Below, piece by piece: positions 8,936 to 31,449 of a stretch of 54,519 nucleotides of DNA. Origin of the DNA: Actinomycetaceae bacterium (lineage in GTDB: Bacteria > Actinomycetota > Actinomycetes > Actinomycetales > Actinomycetaceae); assembly GCA_017934115.1 (NCBI GenBank), contig JAGBKC010000025.1, positions 1 through 54,519 of the forward strand, read 5' to 3'. Numbering within the stretch: position 1 is the stretch's first letter; each line of letters starts with the position of its first letter. Under the pieces are notes generated by a model. That model worked only from the letters and a program-made list of their open reading frames with translations, ran no database searches and was not told the DNA's origin. The translations under genes were made by a program, and so were the position numbers.

Positions 8936-8961
8936 GGCTTGCAGATATGCAGGCCTTTTTT
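8936..8961 (+). terminator. Rho-independent terminator of tuf
   Basis: GGCTTGCA (8936-8943), loop GATA, TGCAGGCC (8948-8955) with one G.U pair, then T6 (8956-8961). Confidence 0.8.
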
Positions 8962-9303
8962 GTTGGATATGTAGTATTTTGGGGAGATAAAACAGGACTG
9001 TGACGTGAAAGAAAGGATGTCCCGTTATGTCAGGCAAGTGTCGTCTAAGAAAGTTTTTAGGAGTTTAAGCATCAGGTGTGTTGTTGTGTGATTCTGAGAA
9101 ATCAGTTGTCGACCTTTCAGTGATTGTGATATTGATGTGTTGAGTGTTCATCGCAGGATTATCTCTGTAAAAAAAGATTGCGAATTTATTTTGCAACTGA
9201 TTTAGCAATGAAACTTTCACGGAAATATGTTCGCAGTATCTATTTTGACTGACGCGAGATATAGTGATAATGCAAAAGTATATCTTTTTTATGGTATTTT
9301 GCT

Positions 9304-9309
9304 ATAATT
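9304..9309 (+). promoter_or_regulatory. Possible -10 (TATAAT) of the dinJ-yafQ promoter, followed by the TACTAGTA/AGTACT palindromes
   Basis: TATAAT lies 43 nt upstream of ATG 9352. The overlapping palindromes TACTAGTA (9311-9318) and AGTACT (9315-9320) sit between it and the RBS. The 9-mer ATGCAAAAG occurs on both sides (9270-9278 and 9332-9340). Confidence 0.3.
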
Positions 9310-9351
9310 TTACTAGTACTAATATATTGTTATGCAAAAGGAGTGGAAGAA

Positions 9352-9624
9352 ATGACTACGGTAGGTATCAGTTTTAAGACTGACGCAGAAATAAAACGTG
9401 AAGCGGAAATTGTTTTAGGTGAGCTTGGCATATCCATGTCGGCGGCGCTCAACATTTTTTTGCGTGCCGTTGTGCGAGAAAATGGTATGCCCATCAATTT
9501 GCACCTCATACAGTTCAACCAAAGGACACGTGATGCTATAGAAGAGGGAGAACGCATCGCTTATGATGAAACAGTTCCTGCATATTCGTCCATGGAAGAA
9601 TTGAAGAAAGCACTTCTTTCATGA
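9352..9624 (+). CDS. Type II antitoxin, RelB/DinJ family (ribbon-helix-helix)
   Basis: MTTVGISFKTDAEIKREAEIVLGELGISMSAALNIFLRAVVRENGMPI is typical of DinJ/RelB. The ATG is 8 nt after AAAGGAG; the track ORF starts 9 nt earlier at GTG 9343. A 4-nt ATGA overlap links it to the toxin gene. Confidence 0.85.
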   Translation: MTTVGISFKTDAEIKREAEIVLGELGISMSAALNIFLRAVVRENGMPINLHLIQFNQRTRDAIEEGERIAYDETVPAYSSMEELKKALLS

Positions 9625-9902
9625 AATACAGTATCAAATTTACAAAGAGTTTCAAAAAAGACCTCAAGAAAGCACAAAAACAAGGAAAAGATCTTGACCT
9701 TTTATGGGGTGTGGTAGAAAAACTGGCAAACGCAGAACCATTAGAAGAAAAATACCGTGACCATCACCTTACTGGAAATAAGAAAAGATTGCGCGAATGT
9801 CACATAGAGTCAGACTGGCTACTGATTTACGCAGTTTATGATGATGTTCTAGTGCTAGCGCTCAACAGGGTAGGTTCACATTCTGAACTGTTCAAAAAAT
9901 GA
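9621..9902 (+). CDS. Type II toxin, YafQ/RelE-family mRNA interferase
   Basis: 93 aa. The ...YRDHHLTGNKKRLRECHIESDWLLIYAVYDDVLVLALNRVGSHSELF pattern matches YafQ-family toxins (DH.L.G...R.CHI..DWLLIY...R.GSHS.LF). Confidence 0.85.
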   Translation: MKYSIKFTKSFKKDLKKAQKQGKDLDLLWGVVEKLANAEPLEEKYRDHHLTGNKKRLRECHIESDWLLIYAVYDDVLVLALNRVGSHSELFKK

Positions 9903-10112
9903 CGCAAACTTTAAAACGAAAATGCAGAGTTTATGCGGAATGACAGTATTTTGAAAAAGCGATTTCAGTGAATTTGGAGGAAAATCAGGCTCTTGAAATG
10001 AAGAAAACAGTGAAATTTTGCTGTTTTGACTGGATATGTATCTGCCGGAATAGTACTACATTATTTTTCCTTTGTATCTTCACTTATGTTCTGATTCACT
10101 AGATTGAAAATA

Positions 10113-10139
10113 CTTGCAGATATTCTGCAAGCCTTTTTT
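10113..10139 (+). terminator. Rho-independent terminator, a near copy of the tuf terminator
   Basis: CTTGCAG (10113-10119), loop ATATT, CTGCAAG (10125-10131), CC, then T6 (10134-10139). Confidence 0.65.
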
Positions 10140-10447
10140 GTATATAAATGACTTGTTTTGTGAAAACTATGCAATTAGAGTTTATTATTTTTGTGTATTG
10201 TTGAATGTGTTTTTAGATGTAGATACTTATTTAGGGGTACTGCTCTCTTGCAGTTATGTAAAACTGCACATGTACTAATAAACTGAGGGTGATTTATGTC
10301 TGGTATATCGAGGCGTGTTTGTTTACTACTTTCCTTAAAATATATGCGATACGTAGTGGTAAGTGATAAAAAAGGAATTGACGACTAAGTGTTGATATGA
10401 GCAAATAATGAACACTGGTCAATAAAACTTGCTAAAAAATTGTCTTT

Positions 10448-10453
10448 TATAAT
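10448..10453 (+). promoter_or_regulatory. Possible -10 (TATAAT) upstream of the R-M operon
   Basis: TATAAT lies 57 nt upstream of ATG 10510. TTGCTA at 10429-10434 is only 13 nt away, which is sub-optimal spacing. The 10-mer AGTGATAAAA flanks the region (10362-10371 and 10461-10470). Confidence 0.25.
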
Positions 10454-10509
10454 AGTGTAGAGTGATAAAAGAGCAGATCATAGATATTAAGTGGATGATA
10501 GGTGTATGT

Positions 10510-11443
10510 ATGGAAAAAAGTGTGAGAAAATTACATCCTGTGGTGAAGTGGGCTGGCGGAAAAACTCAGCTTATTACTCAGATATCGAAGCGATATCCGC
10601 TCGAATTAGGTAAGAGTATCACCAAGTACGCTGAACCATTTGTTGGGGGGGGCAATCCTCTTTGATGTTTTAAGTTTATATGATCTTGATGAGGTCTATA
10701 TCAGTGATATTAACGGTGAACTCATTAATCTGTATTGTTGTATACGAGATAATGTAGATGAAATTATAAAAATTCTTAAAGAATATCAAGATGAATATAT
10801 ATACGCTGACACTGATGTTAGGGAAGAAATATTTTATGAAAAAAGAAATCACTACAATGAGCTTATAAAAAAAGGTTTCTCACATAATTCGATTGAATCA
10901 GCTGCCCTTTTTATTTTTCTTAATAGAACATGTTTTAACGGTTTATACCGAGTCAATAAAAAAGGTTTTTTTAATGTTCCTTGTGGTAAATACAAAAACC
11001 CTAAAATTTGCGATGAAAAAAATATAAGAGCCGTTTCGCATGCTTTGCAGCGTGTAACGATTGCATGTGGAGATTACCGTCAGTCTCTTGAGTTTATAGA
11101 TAAGAACACTTTTGTGTATATTGATCCTCCCTACCGGCCGTTGACTTTGACGTCGAACTTTACATCGTATGCAAAAAATGATTTTAATGACGATTCTCAA
11201 AAGGAATTGGCAGAATATGTCCACATTTTAAGGTCTAAAGGTGCAAAGGTCTTATTAAGTAATTCTGACCCGAAAAACGTTGATCCAAACGATGATTTCT
11301 TTGATTCATTGTATGCAGATTATCGAATCGAGCGTGTTGAAGCTAGCAGAATGATCAATTCTCGCGCAGATAAAAGAGGGCCGGTAAAAGAACTTCTTAT
11401 CTCTAATTATGAAGATGTAGCTGAAAGAGTTGAAGGTTGCTGA
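10510..11443 (+). pseudogene. Dam-class (D12, alpha) N6-adenine DNA methyltransferase, DpnM/M.MboIA-like, interrupted by a frameshift in a poly-G tract (possible phase-OFF state)
   Basis: The N-terminal piece (ATG 10510 after AGGTG) reads MEKSVRKLHPVVKWAGGKTQL...YAEPFVGGG and stops at 10663-10665. The remainder continues in another frame from the G-run to 11443: GGAILFDVL...FLNRTCFNGLYRVN...FVYIDPPYRPL. Together they make one full-length Dam-family enzyme. Confidence 0.85.
10645..10652 (+). repeat. Homopolymeric G8 tract inside motif I of the methyltransferase gene
   Basis: Counted directly: gtt GGGGGGGG caatcc. Either 7 or 10 G would restore a single reading frame. Confidence 0.95.
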
Positions 11444-11448
11444 GTGTC

Positions 11449-12309
11449 ATGAAGAGAGATTTTGATACATGGTTTGCATCTTTTAAAGGAAATATAGCAG
11501 ATTATAGTTATTACGTAGATTTTGATAAAGTGTATAAAAATGTTGATGATATGAAAATCGAGCTTCATATACTTAATTCTCTTATTGGTTCTGGAAATAT
11601 TGAAAAAGATTTTATAGATATTCTTCATCGCTACCCTGAAGTGCTGAGATGTATTCCTATTCTCTTAGCTGTGAGAAAGAAGGAAATACCCGTGACAGAT
11701 GAAAAAGGAGATCACGTATTTTCATTTCAAAAGTCAAAAAATACTGTCGATGAATATGTGCTTTTTATGAAACAAACAGGCTTGTTTGATCTTTTTGAAA
11801 AGCGAATCATTACTAATGTTGTCGATTATGTAACTGGAGTTGAAACAGGTTTAGATTCTAATGGTAGGAAGAATCGTGGCGGGCATTTAATGGAAAATCT
11901 TGTGGAAAGATACATCGTTTCTGCTGGTTTCATAAAATACAAAACCTACTTCAAAGAGATGTATATCCACGATATTGAAGAAAAATGGGCAGTTGATTTA
12001 TCTGCAATATCAAATGAAGGAAAAATGGAAAAGAGATTCGATTATGTGGTGAAAACTGACTCACAGATATATGTTGTTGAAACGAATTTCTATTCGAGTG
12101 GCGGTTCTAAATTGAATGAGACGGCGCGAAGCTATAAAACACTTGCTCAAGAAATTGCCACGATTAATGACCTTACTTTTGTGTGGTTTACGGATGGTAA
12201 GGGATGGAAACGAGCGAAGAATAATTTAGAAGAAACTTTTGATGTTATGGAGCATGTGTATAACATTCATGATTTGGCTTCTGGTGTTCTTAAAAAAGTA
12301 TGTGTGTGA
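11449..12309 (+). CDS. Type II restriction endonuclease, DpnII/MboI family (predicted GATC-specific)
   Basis: MKRDFDTWFASFKGNIADYSYYVDFDKVYKNV...LNSLIGS...DYVTGVETGLDSNGRKNRGGHLMENLVE resembles DpnII (DpnB)/R.MboI as I recall them, and the length is full. The track ORF begins at TTG 11437, overlapping the M1 stop. Confidence 0.82.
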   Translation: MKRDFDTWFASFKGNIADYSYYVDFDKVYKNVDDMKIELHILNSLIGSGNIEKDFIDILHRYPEVLRCIPILLAVRKKEIPVTDEKGDHVFSFQKSKNTVDEYVLFMKQTGLFDLFEKRIITNVVDYVTGVETGLDSNGRKNRGGHLMENLVERYIVSAGFIKYKTYFKEMYIHDIEEKWAVDLSAISNEGKMEKRFDYVVKTDSQIYVVETNFYSSGGSKLNETARSYKTLAQEIATINDLTFVWFTDGKGWKRAKNNLEETFDVMEHVYNIHDLASGVLKKVCV

Positions 12310-12334
12310 TGGATAGGTGTGAGGAGCTGAAAAG

Positions 12335-13084
12335 ATGAAGAGTAAAAAAATAGCACAATGGGAACCTGAAAATTTTGAACTTGAAATGACGACACATTGG
12401 TCTTTTCCACAGCGGGGAAGTTGGGCTACCCATGACGCAAAGTGGAGGGGGAATTGGTCTCCTTATATACCTCGTAATATTATTCTTCGATATTCTTCTG
12501 AAGGTGATCTTGTTTTAGATCAATTCGCAGGAGGCGGTACGACACTCGTTGAAGCGAAGCTGCTCAATAGGAATATTATCGGTGTAGATGTAAATGACGT
12601 GGCGCTAGATAGATGTAGAGAAAAAACTGATTTTGAGTATGAGAACGCTGACGGTAAAGTTTTTATTCGTAAGGGAGATGCGCGTCATCTAGATTTCATA
12701 GAAGATGAAAAAATTGACTTGATATGCACTCATCCGCCTTATGCTAATATCATCAAGTATAGTGATGGGTTGGAAGATGATTTATCTCAGTTGAAAGTTG
12801 ATGATTTTCTTAAAGAAATGAAAAAGGTTGCTTCTGAATCTTACCGTGTACTTAAAAGTGGAAAATATTGTGCCGTTCTTATGGGGGATACGAGAAAACA
12901 AGGGTACATGATCCCCATGTCATTTAGTGTTATGGACATTTTTCGTGATGCTGGTTTTACATTGAAAGAGCTTATTATCAAAGAGCAACACAATTGCAGG
13001 GCAACGGGATATTGGAAAACGAATAGTATCAAGTATAATTTTTTGCTTATTGCTCACGAATATTTGTTTGTTTTCAAAAAATAG
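12335..13084 (+). CDS. Second SAM-dependent (amino) methyltransferase of the R-M cluster; motif I precedes an HPPY catalytic motif
   Basis: 249 aa with LVLDQFAGGGTTLVEAKLLNRNIIGVDVN (motif I, aa 59-87) and DLICTHPPYANII (motif IV, aa 128-140; HPPY at nt 12731-12742). RBS GAGGAG lies upstream. Confidence 0.75.
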   Translation: MKSKKIAQWEPENFELEMTTHWSFPQRGSWATHDAKWRGNWSPYIPRNIILRYSSEGDLVLDQFAGGGTTLVEAKLLNRNIIGVDVNDVALDRCREKTDFEYENADGKVFIRKGDARHLDFIEDEKIDLICTHPPYANIIKYSDGLEDDLSQLKVDDFLKEMKKVASESYRVLKSGKYCAVLMGDTRKQGYMIPMSFSVMDIFRDAGFTLKELIIKEQHNCRATGYWKTNSIKYNFLLIAHEYLFVFKK

Positions 13085-13094
13085 AAGAGAATAT

Positions 13095-13132
13095 AAAGAT
13101 GGAGCGAAGAGTGTTGCTTCGCTCCATCTTTT
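13095..13132. terminator. Bidirectional terminator between the convergent methylase and adh genes
   Basis: AAAGATGGAGCGAAG (13095-13109) pairs with CTTCGCTCCATCTTT (13117-13131), giving a 12-bp GC-containing core, flanked by an A-run and a T-run. Confidence 0.75.
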
Positions 13133-13162
13133 AAGGAAAAGAATAAATTTCTACCCGTGAAA

Positions 13163-14240: not shown

Positions 14241-14299
14241 AGTTCATCTGTGAACTGCCTTTTTATCGGACGCTTGTTATCATAACATCGAGATTATAA
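14241..14299 (-). promoter_or_regulatory. Putative adh promoter/operator region
   Basis: Read on the minus strand, the order is: palindromic ATTATAAT (contains TATAAT, about 14293-14300), the 13-bp palindrome TGTTATCATAACA (14275-14287), the inverted repeat AGTTCA-N4-TGAACT (14241-14256), then the RBS and ATG at 14215. Confidence 0.3.
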
Positions 14300-14546: not shown

Positions 14547-14570
14547 TATGAATAAAGAATATTTTTTTTT

Positions 14571-15305
14571 TTACACAGCTGTATAGCCGCCATCAATGGA
14601 GATGGCTGCTCCTGTAATGAATTGTGCATCATCAGATGCTAAGAAAGTAATAAGCTTAGCAACTTCATCTGGCTCACCAAGGCGCTGTGCTGGGTGGAGA
14701 GGTGCGTAAATGCGTCGTGATTCCTCGTCAATGAGAGGAGTCTTAATGACGCCTGGGCACACGGCATTCACGCGAATATTTTCAGCAGCATACTTTGTTC
14801 CTGCAGCACGAGTTAAGTTGACGACGCCACCTTTAGAAGCAGAGTACACCACGTTATCAGGCACAGCACACAAACCGAACATAGATGCAAGGTTAATAAC
14901 ACTGCCGCCTTTACCTTGCTTGCGCATCTGCTCAATAACGTAACGATCAGTAAGCATGACACCCGTTAAGTCAACATCAAGAACTTTTTGCCAATTCTCA
15001 ATTGTTTCTTGGTCGATAGCATAGTTAGCGCCGCCAATTCCAGCGCAAGCAACAGCAATGTTGATTTCACCAAAAAGCTCCACAGCTTTTTCAACCATTG
15101 CTTTTACGTCGGTGTCGTTAGACACATTAACTTTATATGCCTGAGCGCCAATGGAGGCGGCAACGTCCTCAACAGAATCAGAATAATCAGCTATAAGAAC
15201 TTCAGCGCCATTTTCAATAAAAAGCTTCGCAGTAGCAAGTCCTAATCCTGAAGCACCGCCAGTAATGATAGCTTTTTTGCCTGTAAGGTTACCGATAGTG
15301 TACAT
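14571..15305 (-). CDS. Short-chain dehydrogenase/reductase (SDR family oxidoreductase)
   Basis: 244 aa with TGGASGLGLA (TGxxxGxG) and YSASKGG (YxxxK). Confidence 0.9.
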   Translation of the reverse strand: MYTIGNLTGKKAIITGGASGLGLATAKLFIENGAEVLIADYSDSVEDVAASIGAQAYKVNVSNDTDVKAMVEKAVELFGEINIAVACAGIGGANYAIDQETIENWQKVLDVDLTGVMLTDRYVIEQMRKQGKGGSVINLASMFGLCAVPDNVVYSASKGGVVNLTRAAGTKYAAENIRVNAVCPGVIKTPLIDEESRRIYAPLHPAQRLGEPDEVAKLITFLASDDAQFITGAAISIDGGYTAV

Positions 15306-15438: not shown

Positions 15439-17562
15439 TTATTCTTTTTCTTCTGCTGTGTCGTGCAAAGAAGTATCATCGTCAGATAGGGGCTCTTGTT
15501 GTTTATCGGTATTTTCGTTGTTTTTTGATAAAGCATGCAGATTTGTTTTGATTTTTTCACCAATGGGAGTATTCATCAAGTTTTCCGCACCTTCTTGCAA
15601 GGAAGATACTGTATTTTTTCTCCATGCATCGAAATCTTCAGTAGTTATATGGAATTTCTGCAGAAAATCTGAAATATTTTCTGTGTCGATGTTATGGTTT
15701 TTGCGCCACTCATCGATTTTTTCAGGGGTATATCCTTTATCTTGAATCCACTTATTGATCTGATCGTATGTAGCACCTGTTTGTTCAAGAAGAGAATTCT
15801 TGATTTTATTGATTTGTTCTGCAACATCGAGCGGAAGAATAGCATCTTTGCGCTGCCAAACATTATTCTTCAATTCATAATCGTAAATGAGAAGTTCCTT
15901 GACAGAACGACGAAGGACTTTACCAACTTGTGAACGAGGGAAATCGCCTTCAAGGTACATAATGGATGTTGGCATTGCATAATGAGGAAGTCGATCTTCA
16001 AGATAGGTGCGAATATCACCTAAAGTGACATGAGTATTTTCTTCGCAAATAACACTTGCAACAACAGATTCTCCATTGATTCCAGCTGTAATACCAATAA
16101 CGCATACATCTTTGATTCCATCCATAGGCCGAATTGCTTCTTCTACTTGTGTAGGGTAAATGTTAAAACCGCCGTTAATAATCATTTCTTTAGCGCGGTC
16201 TGCCATAACAAGGAAGTTATCATCCCAATAGCCCAGATCTCCTGTTCGTAACCAGCCGTTGTGGAAAGCTGCTTTTGTTTCTTCTTCGTTGTTGTAGTAA
16301 CCAGAAAAAACCTGTGGGCCTTTTACGAGGATTTCGCCTATTCCGTCTGTTTCTTCATCAAGATTATCGGGATTGGCAATCATAACTTGTGTTGATGACA
16401 CAGGGATGCCTAGGGTAGAAATACGTCGTTCAGTAGACATGGGGTTACCGGCAATGAGAGGCGAACATTCGCTCATACCGAAACCTTCTTGAAGGATACC
16501 TTGTGTTTCTTCTTCCCACATGTGGGCGATGTGTGGGTCAACAGCCATTGCCCCAATGAAAGAATATTTAATGCTGGTTAAATCGATGTTTTTGCCGCGT
16601 TTGCGCCCTTCTTGCGCTGCTTGGCTGATTCGTTGGCACATCGGTGGAACGCCTGGAAAAGCCGTCATATTGTGGCGTTTGTGTGCCGCTAAAAGATTGG
16701 CAACATCAAAGTTGGGTTGCAAAAGAATCGTTGCTGCAGTTTCAATGGCAATGCCGAAAGTTGCTGTTAAGCCAAAGGCGTGGAAGAGAGGCAGGACACC
16801 AGGAAATACTTCTTTACCTTTTTGAAGGCTGGGAAGCCATGCGATGCACTGACGGATGTTTGAGCCGATATTACGGTGTGAAAGCATGACCGCTTTTGGT
16901 GTTCCTGTTGTGCCGCCTGTGTGGATAAGAAGTGCGATGTCATCTAATTGTGGAGCATTGTCATGGAAAGAATGATCGAGTGGAACAACATCTTGTAGGG
17001 CATCATCAAAAGAAAGTGTTCCTGTAGGAACGGTTCCGCGCAACTTTTCTTTTTGTTTGCGTGCAGCATTGACAGGCAGCTTTAAAAGAAAACGTGTTTT
17101 TGTGGGCAGCTCGCGCGATAAATCAACAGACATGTAGGTGCGGTTATTCATGCCGTCTGTTGTTAATTTTTCAATCGTTTGTTCCCATGCGATAACAACA
17201 TGCGCACCGTGGGCCTGTAATTGTGCTTCAAGTTGTAATTTTGGTGCTAAAGGGTTGTGCTCGGCAACAGTAGCACCTAAAGAAAGTGCAGCATAGAAGG
17301 CGATAAGGTGTTGAGGGCAGTTTGGTAAAATAAGGGCAACCACATCACCGCGGCGTACACCGCAGTTGTAGAGAACAGTTTGTGCACGTCGAATGCGTTT
17401 GACAAGATTCTCATAGGTTTCAGTTTTTCCCAAAAAATCATAGGCAAGATTATGCGGGAAATTTTTTGCTGATGTAAAAATCGCTTTATCGATAGTTTGA
17501 GTTACTGGCTCAATTTCGCGTGGAACACCAGCTGGATAATATTGAAAATAGTCAGTATTCAT
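15439..17562 (-). CDS. Long-chain acyl-CoA synthetase (AMP-binding, FadD-like) with a repeat-containing C-terminal extension
   Basis: AMP-binding motif IHTGGTTGTPKAVMLSHRN. The start is chosen at MNTDYFQYYPAGVPREI (ATG 17562-17560, RBS AAGG), because the longer ORF to 17751 would overlap the 3' end of serA. Confidence 0.85.
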   Translation of the reverse strand: MNTDYFQYYPAGVPREIEPVTQTIDKAIFTSAKNFPHNLAYDFLGKTETYENLVKRIRRAQTVLYNCGVRRGDVVALILPNCPQHLIAFYAALSLGATVAEHNPLAPKLQLEAQLQAHGAHVVIAWEQTIEKLTTDGMNNRTYMSVDLSRELPTKTRFLLKLPVNAARKQKEKLRGTVPTGTLSFDDALQDVVPLDHSFHDNAPQLDDIALLIHTGGTTGTPKAVMLSHRNIGSNIRQCIAWLPSLQKGKEVFPGVLPLFHAFGLTATFGIAIETAATILLQPNFDVANLLAAHKRHNMTAFPGVPPMCQRISQAAQEGRKRGKNIDLTSIKYSFIGAMAVDPHIAHMWEEETQGILQEGFGMSECSPLIAGNPMSTERRISTLGIPVSSTQVMIANPDNLDEETDGIGEILVKGPQVFSGYYNNEEETKAAFHNGWLRTGDLGYWDDNFLVMADRAKEMIINGGFNIYPTQVEEAIRPMDGIKDVCVIGITAGINGESVVASVICEENTHVTLGDIRTYLEDRLPHYAMPTSIMYLEGDFPRSQVGKVLRRSVKELLIYDYELKNNVWQRKDAILPLDVAEQINKIKNSLLEQTGATYDQINKWIQDKGYTPEKIDEWRKNHNIDTENISDFLQKFHITTEDFDAWRKNTVSSLQEGAENLMNTPIGEKIKTNLHALSKNNENTDKQQEPLSDDDTSLHDTAEEKE

Positions 17563-29275: not shown

Positions 29276-29290
29276 TTTTTTTTTTTTTTT
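29276..29290. repeat. T15 homopolymer (A15 on the minus strand) just downstream of the menE stop
   Basis: Counted directly: ...gttga TTTTTTTTTTTTTTT gatacatg. Confidence 0.95.
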
Positions 29291-29311: not shown

Positions 29312-30478
29312 TTATGGTGCACTAAAATGCGCAGCTACAAGTGAATGTAACTGTTTTCTATCTATTTTGCCAGAATCAAGCATAGGAAAATCTTTTATGG
29401 CTAACTCGGCTAATGAGACTATGTGTTTAGGAAACCATCCTTTTTCGAGAATGTTTTTTGCTTTCGTGGAAGCATTCTCGTTGTGTGAATCTACAATGGC
29501 AATAACTTCTTCGCCCCATTGTGTACTTTTCATGCCAATAACATATACGCGTGTGTATCCGCATGTCATAAAGATATTCTCAACATGTTCAGGAATAACA
29601 GTGACTCCGCCAGTAGTGATAGCATTATCTGCACGTCCACGAATATGAAGTTTTTTGTTTTCGTCCATATAGCCAATGTCGCTAGTGGTGAAACTACCAT
29701 CAAAGATCTGTTTGTCGATATAGCCATATGCTACACACGAACCCTTGATATGTACGCGTTCATCTTTGGTGAAAGAAATTTTTGTATCTCCAATGGGTGT
29801 GCCATCGTACACGCATCCACCGGAGGTCTCGGTTGATCCGTATGTGGTGACAATGTGAATATTGAGAGATTGTGCTTGCTCAAGAAGTGTATTATCGATG
29901 GCGCTTCCACCTACGAGAACTCCATCAAGATGTTGTAAAATTGCGAGCGATTTTTTGTTGCTGATAAGGCGTTTTAACTGAATAGGAACAAGCGATATGT
30001 AAACGCGCCCGTTATGAGGAAAAAACTGTGTCGCTTCAATGAGTTCTTCTGGTTTTCCGTTACCTGCATAAATTGGTTTTTTCCCAGAGAGGAGAGAACG
30101 AAAAATCGTTTGAAAGCCAGCAATATGACTGCTTGGTAGGCATGATATCCATGTGCCGCTGCCACCTAAAAAATCATGTGTCGCGTGAGCGCTAGCTACA
30201 AGAGATGCAGTTGTATGGCCAACGAGCTTTCCACTTCCGCTAGTAGAACCTGAGGTGCGCATGGCGTAAGCAATGTCAGGAGGAAAAGCTATATGAGATA
30301 ATTCTTTTTCTAGCTCTTTTACTTGCTCTATTCTGTCTTCTGAAGGGGAATATAAAAACAAAGGACGCCGCTCAATGGCGCGCATACGTGCATCGATGGA
30401 ACGAACGGCGCGTGTAAAATCTTTATGTTGTGTTGAGCCAGGAACAAGAAGAGGGTGGTAGTTAGGTTGAATGTCCAT
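29312..30478 (-). CDS. menE: o-Succinylbenzoate-CoA ligase
   Basis: The AMP-binding motif is MRTSGSTSGSGKLV. The protein is short (388 aa) and directly downstream of menB. The start is chosen at MDIQPNY (ATG 30478); the ORF to 30541 would overlap menB. Confidence 0.8.
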   Translation of the reverse strand: MDIQPNYHPLLVPGSTQHKDFTRAVRSIDARMRAIERRPLFLYSPSEDRIEQVKELEKELSHIAFPPDIAYAMRTSGSTSGSGKLVGHTTASLVASAHATHDFLGGSGTWISCLPSSHIAGFQTIFRSLLSGKKPIYAGNGKPEELIEATQFFPHNGRVYISLVPIQLKRLISNKKSLAILQHLDGVLVGGSAIDNTLLEQAQSLNIHIVTTYGSTETSGGCVYDGTPIGDTKISFTKDERVHIKGSCVAYGYIDKQIFDGSFTTSDIGYMDENKKLHIRGRADNAITTGGVTVIPEHVENIFMTCGYTRVYVIGMKSTQWGEEVIAIVDSHNENASTKAKNILEKGWFPKHIVSLAELAIKDFPMLDSGKIDRKQLHSLVAAHFSAP

Positions 30479-30513
30479 GAATTTTCTTCCAAATGTATGT
30501 AGTTGTGAAAATT

Positions 30514-31449
30514 TTAGGCATAGTAAGGAAAATCGTTCCAATCGGGAGAACGTTTTTCAAGAAAAGCATTTCTTCCTTCACGTGCTTCGTCGGTCATATA
30601 GGCTAATCGTGTTGCCTCGCCGGCGAAAGCTTGCATCCCGGCAATGCCGTCATCAGTAGCATTAAAAGCAAGTTTAAGCATGCGAATCGCCTGAGGTGAT
30701 TTTGTGGAAATTATCTGCGCATATTCGAGTGCTTTATTTTCGAGTTCTTTATGGTCAACCGCTTCGTTAATGGCGCCCCATGCTTCAGCTTGCTGAGCAG
30801 AATATTCGCGCGCTAAAAAGAATATTTCTCGTGCGCGGCGATCTCCTACTTGGCGTGCAAGAAGCTGAGAACCGTATCCTGCATCAAAAGAGCCAACGTT
30901 GGCATCCACCTGCATGAATTTTGCATGTTCACGCGAGGCAACAGCTAAATCGCAGACAACGCCCAAGGAATGCCCGCCACCTGTTGCCCATCCAGGAATA
31001 GCGGCAATAACAACTTTTGGCATGTAGCGAATAAGTTTTTGTACTTCTAGAATGTGAAGACGACCGTTTCCGCCGCTTTTGTATTCATATCCTTCTTTGC
31101 CACGTACGCGTTGATCGCCGCCAGAACAAAAACTCCATACTCCATCTTTTGGTGAAGGGCCATTAGCGGTAAGAATAACGCTTCCTACAGTTGAGTCGAG
31201 GCGTGCGTGGTCAAGTGCAGTGTAGAGCTCATCAACGGTTTCAGGGCGAAAAGCGTTGCGTACTTCTGGGCGGTTAAAAGCAATGCGTACAACAGGGCGA
31301 TCAGTGCATGTGGGATTTTCGCCTTCGCCTGAGCGTGTTACTCCTCGGTGATAGGTGATATCAGAAAAAGAAAACTCGGGAATATCTCGCCATAACTGTG
31401 GATCAAAAATTTCTGATACTTGTGTAGGTAAAGGTGGTAAAGAACTCAT
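30514..31449 (-). CDS. menB: 1,4-dihydroxy-2-naphthoyl-CoA synthase
   Basis: 311 aa with the crotonase fold and MenB-typical segments (FCSGGDQRVRG, WATGGGHSLGVVCDL, KRSPDW). Confidence 0.94.
   Translation of the reverse strand: MSSLPPLPTQVSEIFDPQLWRDIPEFSFSDITYHRGVTRSGEGENPTCTDRPVVRIAFNRPEVRNAFRPETVDELYTALDHARLDSTVGSVILTANGPSPKDGVWSFCSGGDQRVRGKEGYEYKSGGNGRLHILEVQKLIRYMPKVVIAAIPGWATGGGHSLGVVCDLAVASREHAKFMQVDANVGSFDAGYGSQLLARQVGDRRAREIFFLAREYSAQQAEAWGAINEAVDHKELENKALEYAQIISTKSPQAIRMLKLAFNATDDGIAGMQAFAGEATRLAYMTDEAREGRNAFLEKRSPDWNDFPYYA

Follow-up and report, generated by a model that had tools for sequence, protein, structure and literature searches.

The window considered here, a stretch of 54,519 nucleotides (nt) of contig JAGBKC010000025.1 from an Actinomycetaceae bacterium (assembly GCA_017934115.1), carries a restriction-modification (R-M) operon whose first gene is split by a run of eight G residues. 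The operon comprises a methylase gene (M1), a restriction endonuclease gene (R), and a second methylase gene (M2). To judge from its encoded motifs and profile matches, M1 is a DpnM-like N6-adenine methylase gene of the D12 (Dam) class, and its product presumably methylates GATC, given the adjoining DpnII-family endonuclease and the likeness to DpnM. A preliminary description of this DNA, prepared from its letters alone, had likewise placed a Dam-class methylase beside an intact DpnII-type endonuclease, and this pairing is confirmed by matches to PF02086 and, over its full length, to PF04556 (Table 1). The reading frames given there, the break within motif I, and the arithmetic by which seven or ten G residues restore the frame were all reproduced from the open reading frames (ORFs), Pfam profiles, and in silico tracts.

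Eight consecutive G residues (GGGGGGGG), read directly from the window sequence, lie in the local context GAACCATTTGTT-G8-CAA. The frame that opens at ATG 10510 reads MEKSVRKLHPVVKWAGGKTQL...YAEPFVGGGNPL, a translation also given as MEKSVRKLHPVVKWAGGKTQL...KYAEPFVGGGNPL, and runs into a TGA stop at 10663-10665. This start is preceded by a Shine-Dalgarno-like AGGTG at a distance of 5 nt, and the N-termini of the closest homologs (MKNREIHPVIKWAGGK...) agree with it. The rest of the enzyme, (G)GAILFDVL...NRTCFNGLYRVN...FVYIDPPYRPL, is encoded in the +1 frame and ends with TGA at 11441-11443. The first canonical codon of this downstream part is GCA at 10652-10654, and the ORF listed for it extends from TTG 10640 to 11443 and encodes 267 amino acids (aa). 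Independent translation of this ORF was considered and rejected, as no Shine-Dalgarno sequence lies upstream of the TTG and the product would be devoid of motif X.

The tract supplies codons 46-48 of the 311 in M1. With eight residues (G8), translation stops 4 codons past the tract, and full-length M1 is not encoded in one frame. In silico tracts of seven (G7) and ten (G10) residues yield EPFVGGAILF and EPFVGGGAILF, respectively, both in frame, and both G8 and G9 are out of frame. Motifs X (K-W-x-G-G-K), I (F-x-G-x-G), and IV (D-P-P-Y) are all encoded in the M1 region. As sequenced, motifs X and I fall on a 51-aa peptide and motif IV in the other frame, and the three are united in one polypeptide only after repair. 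The two fragments abut on the PF02086 profile. Repaired to G10, M1 scores 292 bits against TIGR00571 (Dam family; cut-off 115) and aligns over its full length with the DpnM crystal structure 2DPM (E = 9e-53).

Table 1. Features of the M1-R-M2 operon and its surroundings, in window coordinates
Feature	Position	Strand	Profile match
G8 homopolymer on Gly-Gly-Gly codons of methylase motif I (FxGxG); frameshift site	10645..10652	+	
M1, N-terminal frame of 51 codons, with motif X (KWAGGK) and motif I (FVGGG)	10510..10665	+	PF02086 positions 1-32
M1, remainder in the +1 frame, with NRTCFNGLYRVN and the catalytic IDPPY	10652..11443	+	PF02086 positions 31-253, E = 4e-52
CTT TGA at the stop of the shifted frame; prfB-type +1 hexamer, judged incidental	10660..10665	+	
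R, DpnII-family restriction endonuclease, 286 aa, intact	11449..12309	+	PF04556 positions 1-278 of 278, E = 5e-108
M2, second methylase, 249 aa, intact	12335..13084	+	N6_N4_Mtase, E = 1e-24
Perfect 15-bp hairpin with T/A runs on both sides; bidirectional terminator closing the M1-R-M2 operon	13095..13131		
RelB/DinJ antitoxin (9343-9624) and YafQ/RelE toxin (9621-9902), upstream of the R-M operon in the same island	9343..9902	+	
Island of low GC content (31-40%; flanks 42-50%), bordered by tuf and a Zn alcohol dehydrogenase gene	8964..13150		

Apart from the tract, M1 appears to be sound. Translation and alignment with homologs revealed no further stop or frameshift, and the poly-G frameshift is, on this sequence comparison, the only lesion of the gene. 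Decay elsewhere in M1, which the preliminary description had named as the sign of a plain pseudogene, was looked for and not found: the repaired protein keeps 104 of the 105 columns that are invariant in 10 homologs, and intact genes deviate among themselves at 0-11 such columns. Because there is no decay outside the tract, either the frameshift is recent or M1 is intermittently functional.

G8 is the sole run of G or C longer than 6 nt in the 54.5-kb window. By chance, 0.22 such runs would be expected, and at least one was present in 19 of 100 dinucleotide shuffles. GGG codons are rare in this DNA: tuf has none among 33 Gly codons, the alcohol dehydrogenase gene has 1 among 42, and the remainder of M1 has 1 among 9. 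Thus, the tract is notable for its place and not for its mere presence, since it is built of avoided GGG codons and sits on an invariant Gly triplet. The longest homopolymers in the window are a T15 run (29276-29290), located just 3' of a minus-strand ORF at 29312-30541, and a T11 run (14562-14572) at the 3' end of a short-chain dehydrogenase gene.

Among homologous loci (79 + 6 + 18), the longest G run at motif I is 7 nt and none is frameshifted there; the motif I codons are a mixture of GGT, GGC, and GGA. The 79 loci, taken from a scan of genome contigs, are distant homologs with no more than 60% identity, and they inform on codons, not on tract length. Since the combination of poly-G and frameshift is absent from all homologous loci examined, it seems to be particular to the lineage of the window. 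The glycine loop of the DpnM-like subfamily is G-[G/S]-G-A (85 of 85 loci and 18 of 18 loci), with 116 of the 120 best homologous proteins reading GGGA. On this basis, G10 would be the canonical ON state, from which G8 is two steps removed.

The relatives of this cassette are informative regarding how exceptional the broken gene is. A search of 5.8 billion proteins with repaired M1 gave nearest homologs of 67-68% identity and neither a relative more than 68% identical nor a full-length allele of M1. Close cassettes occur in metagenome-assembled genomes of Clostridia, in Peptoniphilus, and in Fusobacterium vincentii, in the order M1-(optional nuclease-like gene)-R-M2. The order M1-R-M2 is present in 16 M1-anchored loci, and the 17th has M2 upstream of M1. 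MboI has a gene order of M-R-M. When contexts were anchored on M2, a D12 methylase and a DpnII endonuclease were found to adjoin it in 18 of 18 cases, again in the order M1-R-M2. M2 is also the most conserved of the three genes, with identities of 72-85% versus 54-68% for M1; its homologs are named 'TRM11 family methyltransferase' by NCBI. M1 is intact in all of the approximately 36 other cassettes examined (17 loci, locus L108, and 18 loci), which makes the broken M1 of the window exceptional and suggests that the lesion is recent. A Firmicutes cassette (L273, 2319-3264) has a split DpnII endonuclease gene (217 + 107 aa) with M1 and M2 intact. Decay more usually proceeds in this order, which is the reverse of that in the window.

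The arrangement of the three genes bears on how a loss of M1 would be felt by the cell. R starts at ATG 11449, only 5 nt past the M1 stop, and the sole Shine-Dalgarno-like element of R is a GAAGG located 12 nt before this ATG. The short gap between stop and start, together with the poorly placed GAAGG, suggests that translation of R is coupled to that of M1, and the geometry would fit coupling by termination and reinitiation. R deviates from its homologs at 4 of 105 otherwise invariant columns, compared with a range of 0-7 among the 12 homologs compared. Matches of R to pentatricopeptide proteins in the PDB had no aligned stretch and were discarded as spurious.

M2 begins 25 nt past the R stop and has its own strong GAGGAG 8 nt before the ATG. 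In M2, motif I (DQFAGGGTT, residues 47-107) comes before motif IV (THPPY, residues 111-187), an order that is permuted relative to the beta-class structure 2ZIE, and the likeness to chains named DpnA is weak (E ~3e-4). Orthology of M2 to DpnA or M.MboIC, which belong to the beta class with motif IV followed by motif I, therefore failed when tested, and M2 is best viewed from its sequence as an analog, not a demonstrated ortholog, of the second pneumococcal methylase. It deviates at 1 of 75 invariant columns, which is inside the range of its homologs.

A scan for promoters and terminators found no convincing internal promoter in the operon and a single terminator, which follows M2. Terminator-like matches that involve the G run were disregarded, as they need G-U pairs to form. 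An Rfam scan of the whole window returned no match. The presumed promoter or 5' leader of the operon contains a GATC site (10476-10479), approximately 30 nt before the M1 ATG, and methylation-dependent autoregulation through this site is conceivable.

Evidence on tract length at the locus itself comes from one ruminant gut metagenome sample (XIEF21-1; SAMN15830140; SRR12529159). Exact copies of the proteins encoded by the M1 C-terminal ORF, R, M2, and the EF-Tu gene were found only on the window contig and on three other contigs from the same sample. Two of these are from ENA assemblies and one is from a Logan k-mer assembly (SRR12529159), and they are 99.98-100% identical to the window. All four assemblies carry G8. 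Because several assemblers agree on this length, an assembler artifact is disfavored; the reads behind the four assemblies were probably the same or closely related, and agreement among the assemblies is not independent biological replication. A pattern scan of Joint Genome Institute (JGI) metagenomes for any tract of 5-14 nt between the exact flanks gave no match. Elsewhere, position 14254 is C in both ENA assemblies (L081 and L082) and A in the window. Likewise, a run at 16691 is A3 in assembly L082 versus A4 in the window, which splits the gene for a 707-aa AMP-binding enzyme. These two differences within one sample are polymorphisms of the population or else noise in the assemblies.

Poly-G tracts at the same motif are found in other D12 methylase genes. 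A degenerate scan for E-P-F-[V/I/M] followed by at least eight G residues yielded at least 120 stretches from metagenomes and 25 from viruses (contig labels L097-L241), whose representatives are D12 methylases according to Pfam. The tracts measure 8 to ~11 nt on the motif I glycines, and reach 19 nt in unclassified stretches. A long downstream ORF is out of frame in 29 of the 75 genes with recognizable structure, or in ~14-16 of 56 lineages once near-identical contigs are collapsed, as called by an ORF-length rule that misclassified one or two GC-rich cases. By comparison, none of 85 control homologs without a long tract is out of frame (Fisher p ~1e-11 for contigs and ~1e-7 for lineages). The length of the run also varies inside groups with flank identities of 85% or more (G8 in frame versus G9 shifted; total G runs of 10 versus 11; G8, G9, and G11). 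In one phage family, an unbiased rescan recovered G6 (1 case), G7 (6 cases, all in frame and reading EPFIGGANVI), G8 (3 cases), G9 (1 case), and one interrupted tract. The alleles of this family are G6, G7, G8, G9, and G11, and only G7 is in frame.

Examples are also available from cultured phages. Four phages of Enterocloster bolteae with genomes of ~100 kb (CB457P2, CB473P1, CB473P2, and CB473P3; GenBank OP172754-OP172757) were described in one study. CB473P1 carries G7 and a single coding sequence of 238 aa. In CB473P2 and CB457P2, the tract is G8 and the methylase gene is annotated as two hypothetical proteins; relative to CB473P1, these genomes have one extra G and are otherwise identical across the aligned region. 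CB473P3 has the interrupted tract GGAGGGG. The local phage sequence, GAACCATTTGTA-G7/8-CAA, is nearly that of the window. Since near-identical genomes differ in tract length, poly-G at motif I appears to be a recurrent hot spot that toggles over short evolutionary times, and a literature search found no paper that describes poly-G on D12 motif I as a switch. Speculatively, toggling of a phage Dam-like methylase might serve as a hedge where some hosts restrict in the manner of DpnII and others in that of DpnI.

The comparison between these phage genes and M1 has limits as well as strengths. Phage genes such as those of CB473P1 and CB473P2 and those on IMG/VR contigs share with the window the pattern GAACCATTTGT(A/T) followed by G7-8 and CAA, on the same motif and with the same +1 frame consequence at G8. 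However, they constitute a distinct subfamily, possibly T4-Dam-like, whose match to the M1-family profile is weak or nil. The G7-type loop, EPF[V/I]GGA, is the natural in-frame state of this separate subfamily, with GGA as its in-frame reading. Also unlike M1, the phage genes appear to be orphan methylases, with no DpnII endonuclease or M2 homolog detected alongside.

The explanation that we favor, with moderate confidence, is that the G8 tract makes M1 a slippage-prone and in principle reversible toggle that has been caught in its OFF state, which is tolerated through M2 and probably through reduced translation of R. The run would have arisen by synonymous changes to GGG codons in the glycine loop and would then have changed in length by replication slippage, either by +1 from G7 or by -2 from G10. 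If the run keeps slipping, the lesion would be reversible in principle, and M1 would behave as a stochastic ON/OFF toggle. To our knowledge, actinobacteria lack MutS/MutL, which should favor indels in such runs. In OFF cells, M2 would keep GATC methylated by virtue of its own strong ribosome-binding site, and R would probably lose most of its translation with ribosomes terminating ~780 nt upstream. Such a drop in R translation is to be expected because ribosomes stop at 10665 and the start of R would rely on coupling.

An active endonuclease without GATC methylation would be lethal. The window contains 187 GATC sites, an observed/expected ratio of 0.82 that resembles those of other 4-nt palindromes and indicates no special avoidance. 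The preliminary description had argued that the OFF state creates a problem of self-restriction, which overlooks the intact M2 gene at 12335-13084, a member of the same conserved cassette. In the DpnII operon of Streptococcus mutans, which encodes two methylases, a dpnM deletion strain is viable and its DNA is still sensitive to DpnI and thus GATC-methylated; methylation is lost only when both methylases are lost (PMC11904264). By analogy, M2 could cover the chromosome in the absence of M1.

Several observations weigh against the toggle. No length heterogeneity and no ON allele were seen among the four contigs from the one sample. The one-step change to G7 would remove a glycine that is invariant in the DpnM-like subfamily, and the canonical G10 is two steps from G8. 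The run is also short. G8 lies at the low end of the lengths that have been treated as phase-variable, which are at least 7 nt in one study (PMC10334774) and more than 8 in another (PMC3936762), and in Bifidobacterium breve a G10 tract is ~93% stable, with only G11 being strongly heterogeneous (PMC9187656). M2, with its permuted motifs, is not an ortholog of DpnA, and none of the 17 M1-anchored and 18 M2-anchored loci pairs R with M2 in the absence of M1; the capacity of M2 to protect the cell by itself is therefore putative. Conversely, if M2 fully methylates GATC, switching of M1 has no obvious phenotype. That M1 and M2 always co-occur in the cassettes examined argues against simple redundancy. 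Overall, the proposal of a phase-variable switch made in the preliminary description finds favor in the tract being the sole lesion and in the variable length of analogous D12 tracts, but is held back by the presence here of G8 only, without an ON allele.

It is possible, albeit in our view not probable, that M1 is a dead-end pseudogene in which one slippage event, at the most mutable site, killed a gene made dispensable by M2, with decay just starting and no switching role for the tract. Outside the tract, M1 nevertheless shows no lesion, its invariant sites are not unusually rich in substitutions, and its preservation in every other cassette examined argues that it is non-redundant. Furthermore, endonuclease genes normally decay first, yet R is intact here, and analogous tracts shift in both directions between close relatives. 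What speaks for a pseudogene is that G8 is the only public allele, common to assemblies that differ elsewhere by one single-nucleotide polymorphism and one indel, that it is not adjacent to the canonical G10, and that a chance G8 is not very rare. The island is foreign low-GC DNA, acquired R-M systems often decay, and the relative L273 has a split endonuclease gene. Moreover, the first methylase is dispensable in S. mutans (PMC11904264).

An error of sequencing or assembly, hiding a true G7 or G10 and a constitutively intact M1, is a less attractive explanation that we consider improbable. Exactly G8 was obtained in the scaffolded ENA, k141, and Logan k-mer assemblies as well as in the window; the Logan contig passes through the tract unbroken, and a true G10 would need the loss of two bases. 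The consensus of short reads is seldom wrong at runs of 8 nt. In favor of an error, homopolymers are the classic place for indel miscalls, the four contigs probably come from the same or closely related reads, another gene is split in assembly L082 by an A3/A4 indel, and an intact M1 would match all other cassettes.

Recoding, by which ribosomes would make full-length M1 from G8 through a +1 shift at CTT TGA or a -2/+1 slip on the G run, seems very improbable. The prfB +1 frameshift site consists of CTT TGA with a Shine-Dalgarno-like element 3 nt upstream. In M1, CTT TGA occurs directly after the tract, slipping by +1 at this point leads into the frame of the downstream part, and the G run before it is itself Shine-Dalgarno-like, but this run ends 7 nt before CTT. 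A49, which is invariant, and F52, which is nearly so (11 of 12 sequences), would be missing from the product, FVGGG-NPL-DVL. A programmed shift of the prfB type was judged unlikely on account of this spacing and the defective product. The hexamer is simply the out-of-frame view of the conserved Leu-Phe-Asp codons CTC TTT GAT, and the arrangement has no Rfam match and is absent from all homologs examined.

The surroundings of the operon provide hints regarding its origin. The EF-Tu of the host is 87-91% identical to those of Arcanobacterium, Actinotignum, Ancrocorticia, and Trueperella, which marks the organism as an uncultured member of the Actinomycetaceae. In relatives of the host, a few small genes separate tuf from the rpsJ operon downstream. 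Judging by base composition and context, the M1-R-M2 operon is horizontally acquired. The RelB/YafQ module is flanked by a 16-nt direct repeat at 8948-8963 and 10126-10141 (TGCAGGCCTTTTTTGT and TGCAAGCCTTTTTTGT), and a terminator hairpin (10113-10131) has the second copy as its tail. It may be that this toxin-antitoxin module inserted into the tuf terminator or carried a copy of it along.

There are parallels between this system and several that have been characterized, and each is accompanied by differences. The DpnII systems of Streptococcus pneumoniae and S. mutans (dpnM-dpnA-dpnB) likewise unite a D12 methylase, a DpnII-family endonuclease, and a second adenine methylase in one operon, and S. 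mutans, at least, survives when only the first methylase is lost (PMC11904264). The window differs in its order of M1-R-M2, in the permuted motifs of M2, and in having no evident competence promoter. Unlike M1, no characterized DpnII/MboI system has been reported to have a first methylase frameshifted by poly-G. In phasevarions, simple sequence repeats reside in Type III mod and Type I hsd genes of Haemophilus, Neisseria, Helicobacter, and Streptococcus suis (PMC5909438; PMC7383803). Similarly to M1, a repeat in the 5' part of the methylase ORF sets the frame, and the OFF state yields a short truncated peptide. In contrast, the window carries an orthodox Type II system in which the endonuclease is independent of the methylase and a second methylase is present, and its tract is a short G8 on a catalytic motif.

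Homopolymer control of Type II systems and of actinobacterial genes has also been documented. Homopolymers occur in both the methylase and the endonuclease genes of NlaIV in Neisseria gonorrhoeae, with the functionally studied switch residing in the endonuclease gene (bioRxiv 10.64898/2026.01.10.698759). Mycoplasma agalactiae has a CpG methylase with poly(G)/poly(GA) tracts (PMC9465063), and frameshifted methylases are known in Helicobacter pylori (PMC3936762). In these systems, as proposed here, a methylase or endonuclease gene is turned ON or OFF under homopolymer control, whereas the enzyme families and specificities are different and the hosts are proteobacteria or mollicutes. Among actinobacteria, pilus tracts of B. 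breve include G10 with ~6.5% and G11 with ~63% non-reference alleles (PMC9187656), and homopolymer tracts of at least 7 nt in glpK and other genes of Mycobacterium tuberculosis vary (PMC10334774). These switches share with M1 an intragenic G/C run and, as proposed for M1, a reversible frameshift by replication slippage. Unlike M1, they concern pili or metabolic genes and not R-M, and their heterogeneity was measured directly.

Thus, the suggestion in the preliminary description that such switches were undescribed does not hold for actinobacteria (PMC9187656; PMC10334774), and homopolymer control of Type II enzymes has precedents of its own (PMC9465063; PMC3936762; bioRxiv 10.64898/2026.01.10.698759). 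It may hold for DpnII/MboI-type systems, as our literature search found no description of a repeat switch in a GATC system of this type or on D12 motif I. A wider reading of the data, which we offer tentatively and regard as somewhat doubtful, is that poly-G at motif I is a recurrent ON/OFF device of D12 methylases. Phages would use it, through orphan Dam-like enzymes, for bet-hedging between hosts that cleave GATC when it is unmethylated and hosts that cleave it when methylated. In the present case M1 and the coupled R would switch while the separately translated M2 protects the cell, giving a 'safe' phase-variable restriction barrier of the orthodox Type II kind.

If the tract does not switch, then M1 represents an ordinary recent frameshift in a redundant gene. 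If it does, homopolymer control would be shown for the first time in a DpnII/MboI-type GATC system, and likewise in an R-M system of the Actinomycetaceae. The operon would also suggest how a cell might survive phase variation of an orthodox Type II system, with an independent second methylase serving as a safety net and the endonuclease being coupled to the gene that is switched. The recurrence of poly-G at motif I in many phage and metagenomic D12 methylase genes, in frame as well as out of frame, suggests that this very common family of enzymes has a hypermutable site of general occurrence. This site matters for the arms races over methylation between phages and their hosts, and for genome annotation, where affected genes are called as two 'hypothetical proteins'.

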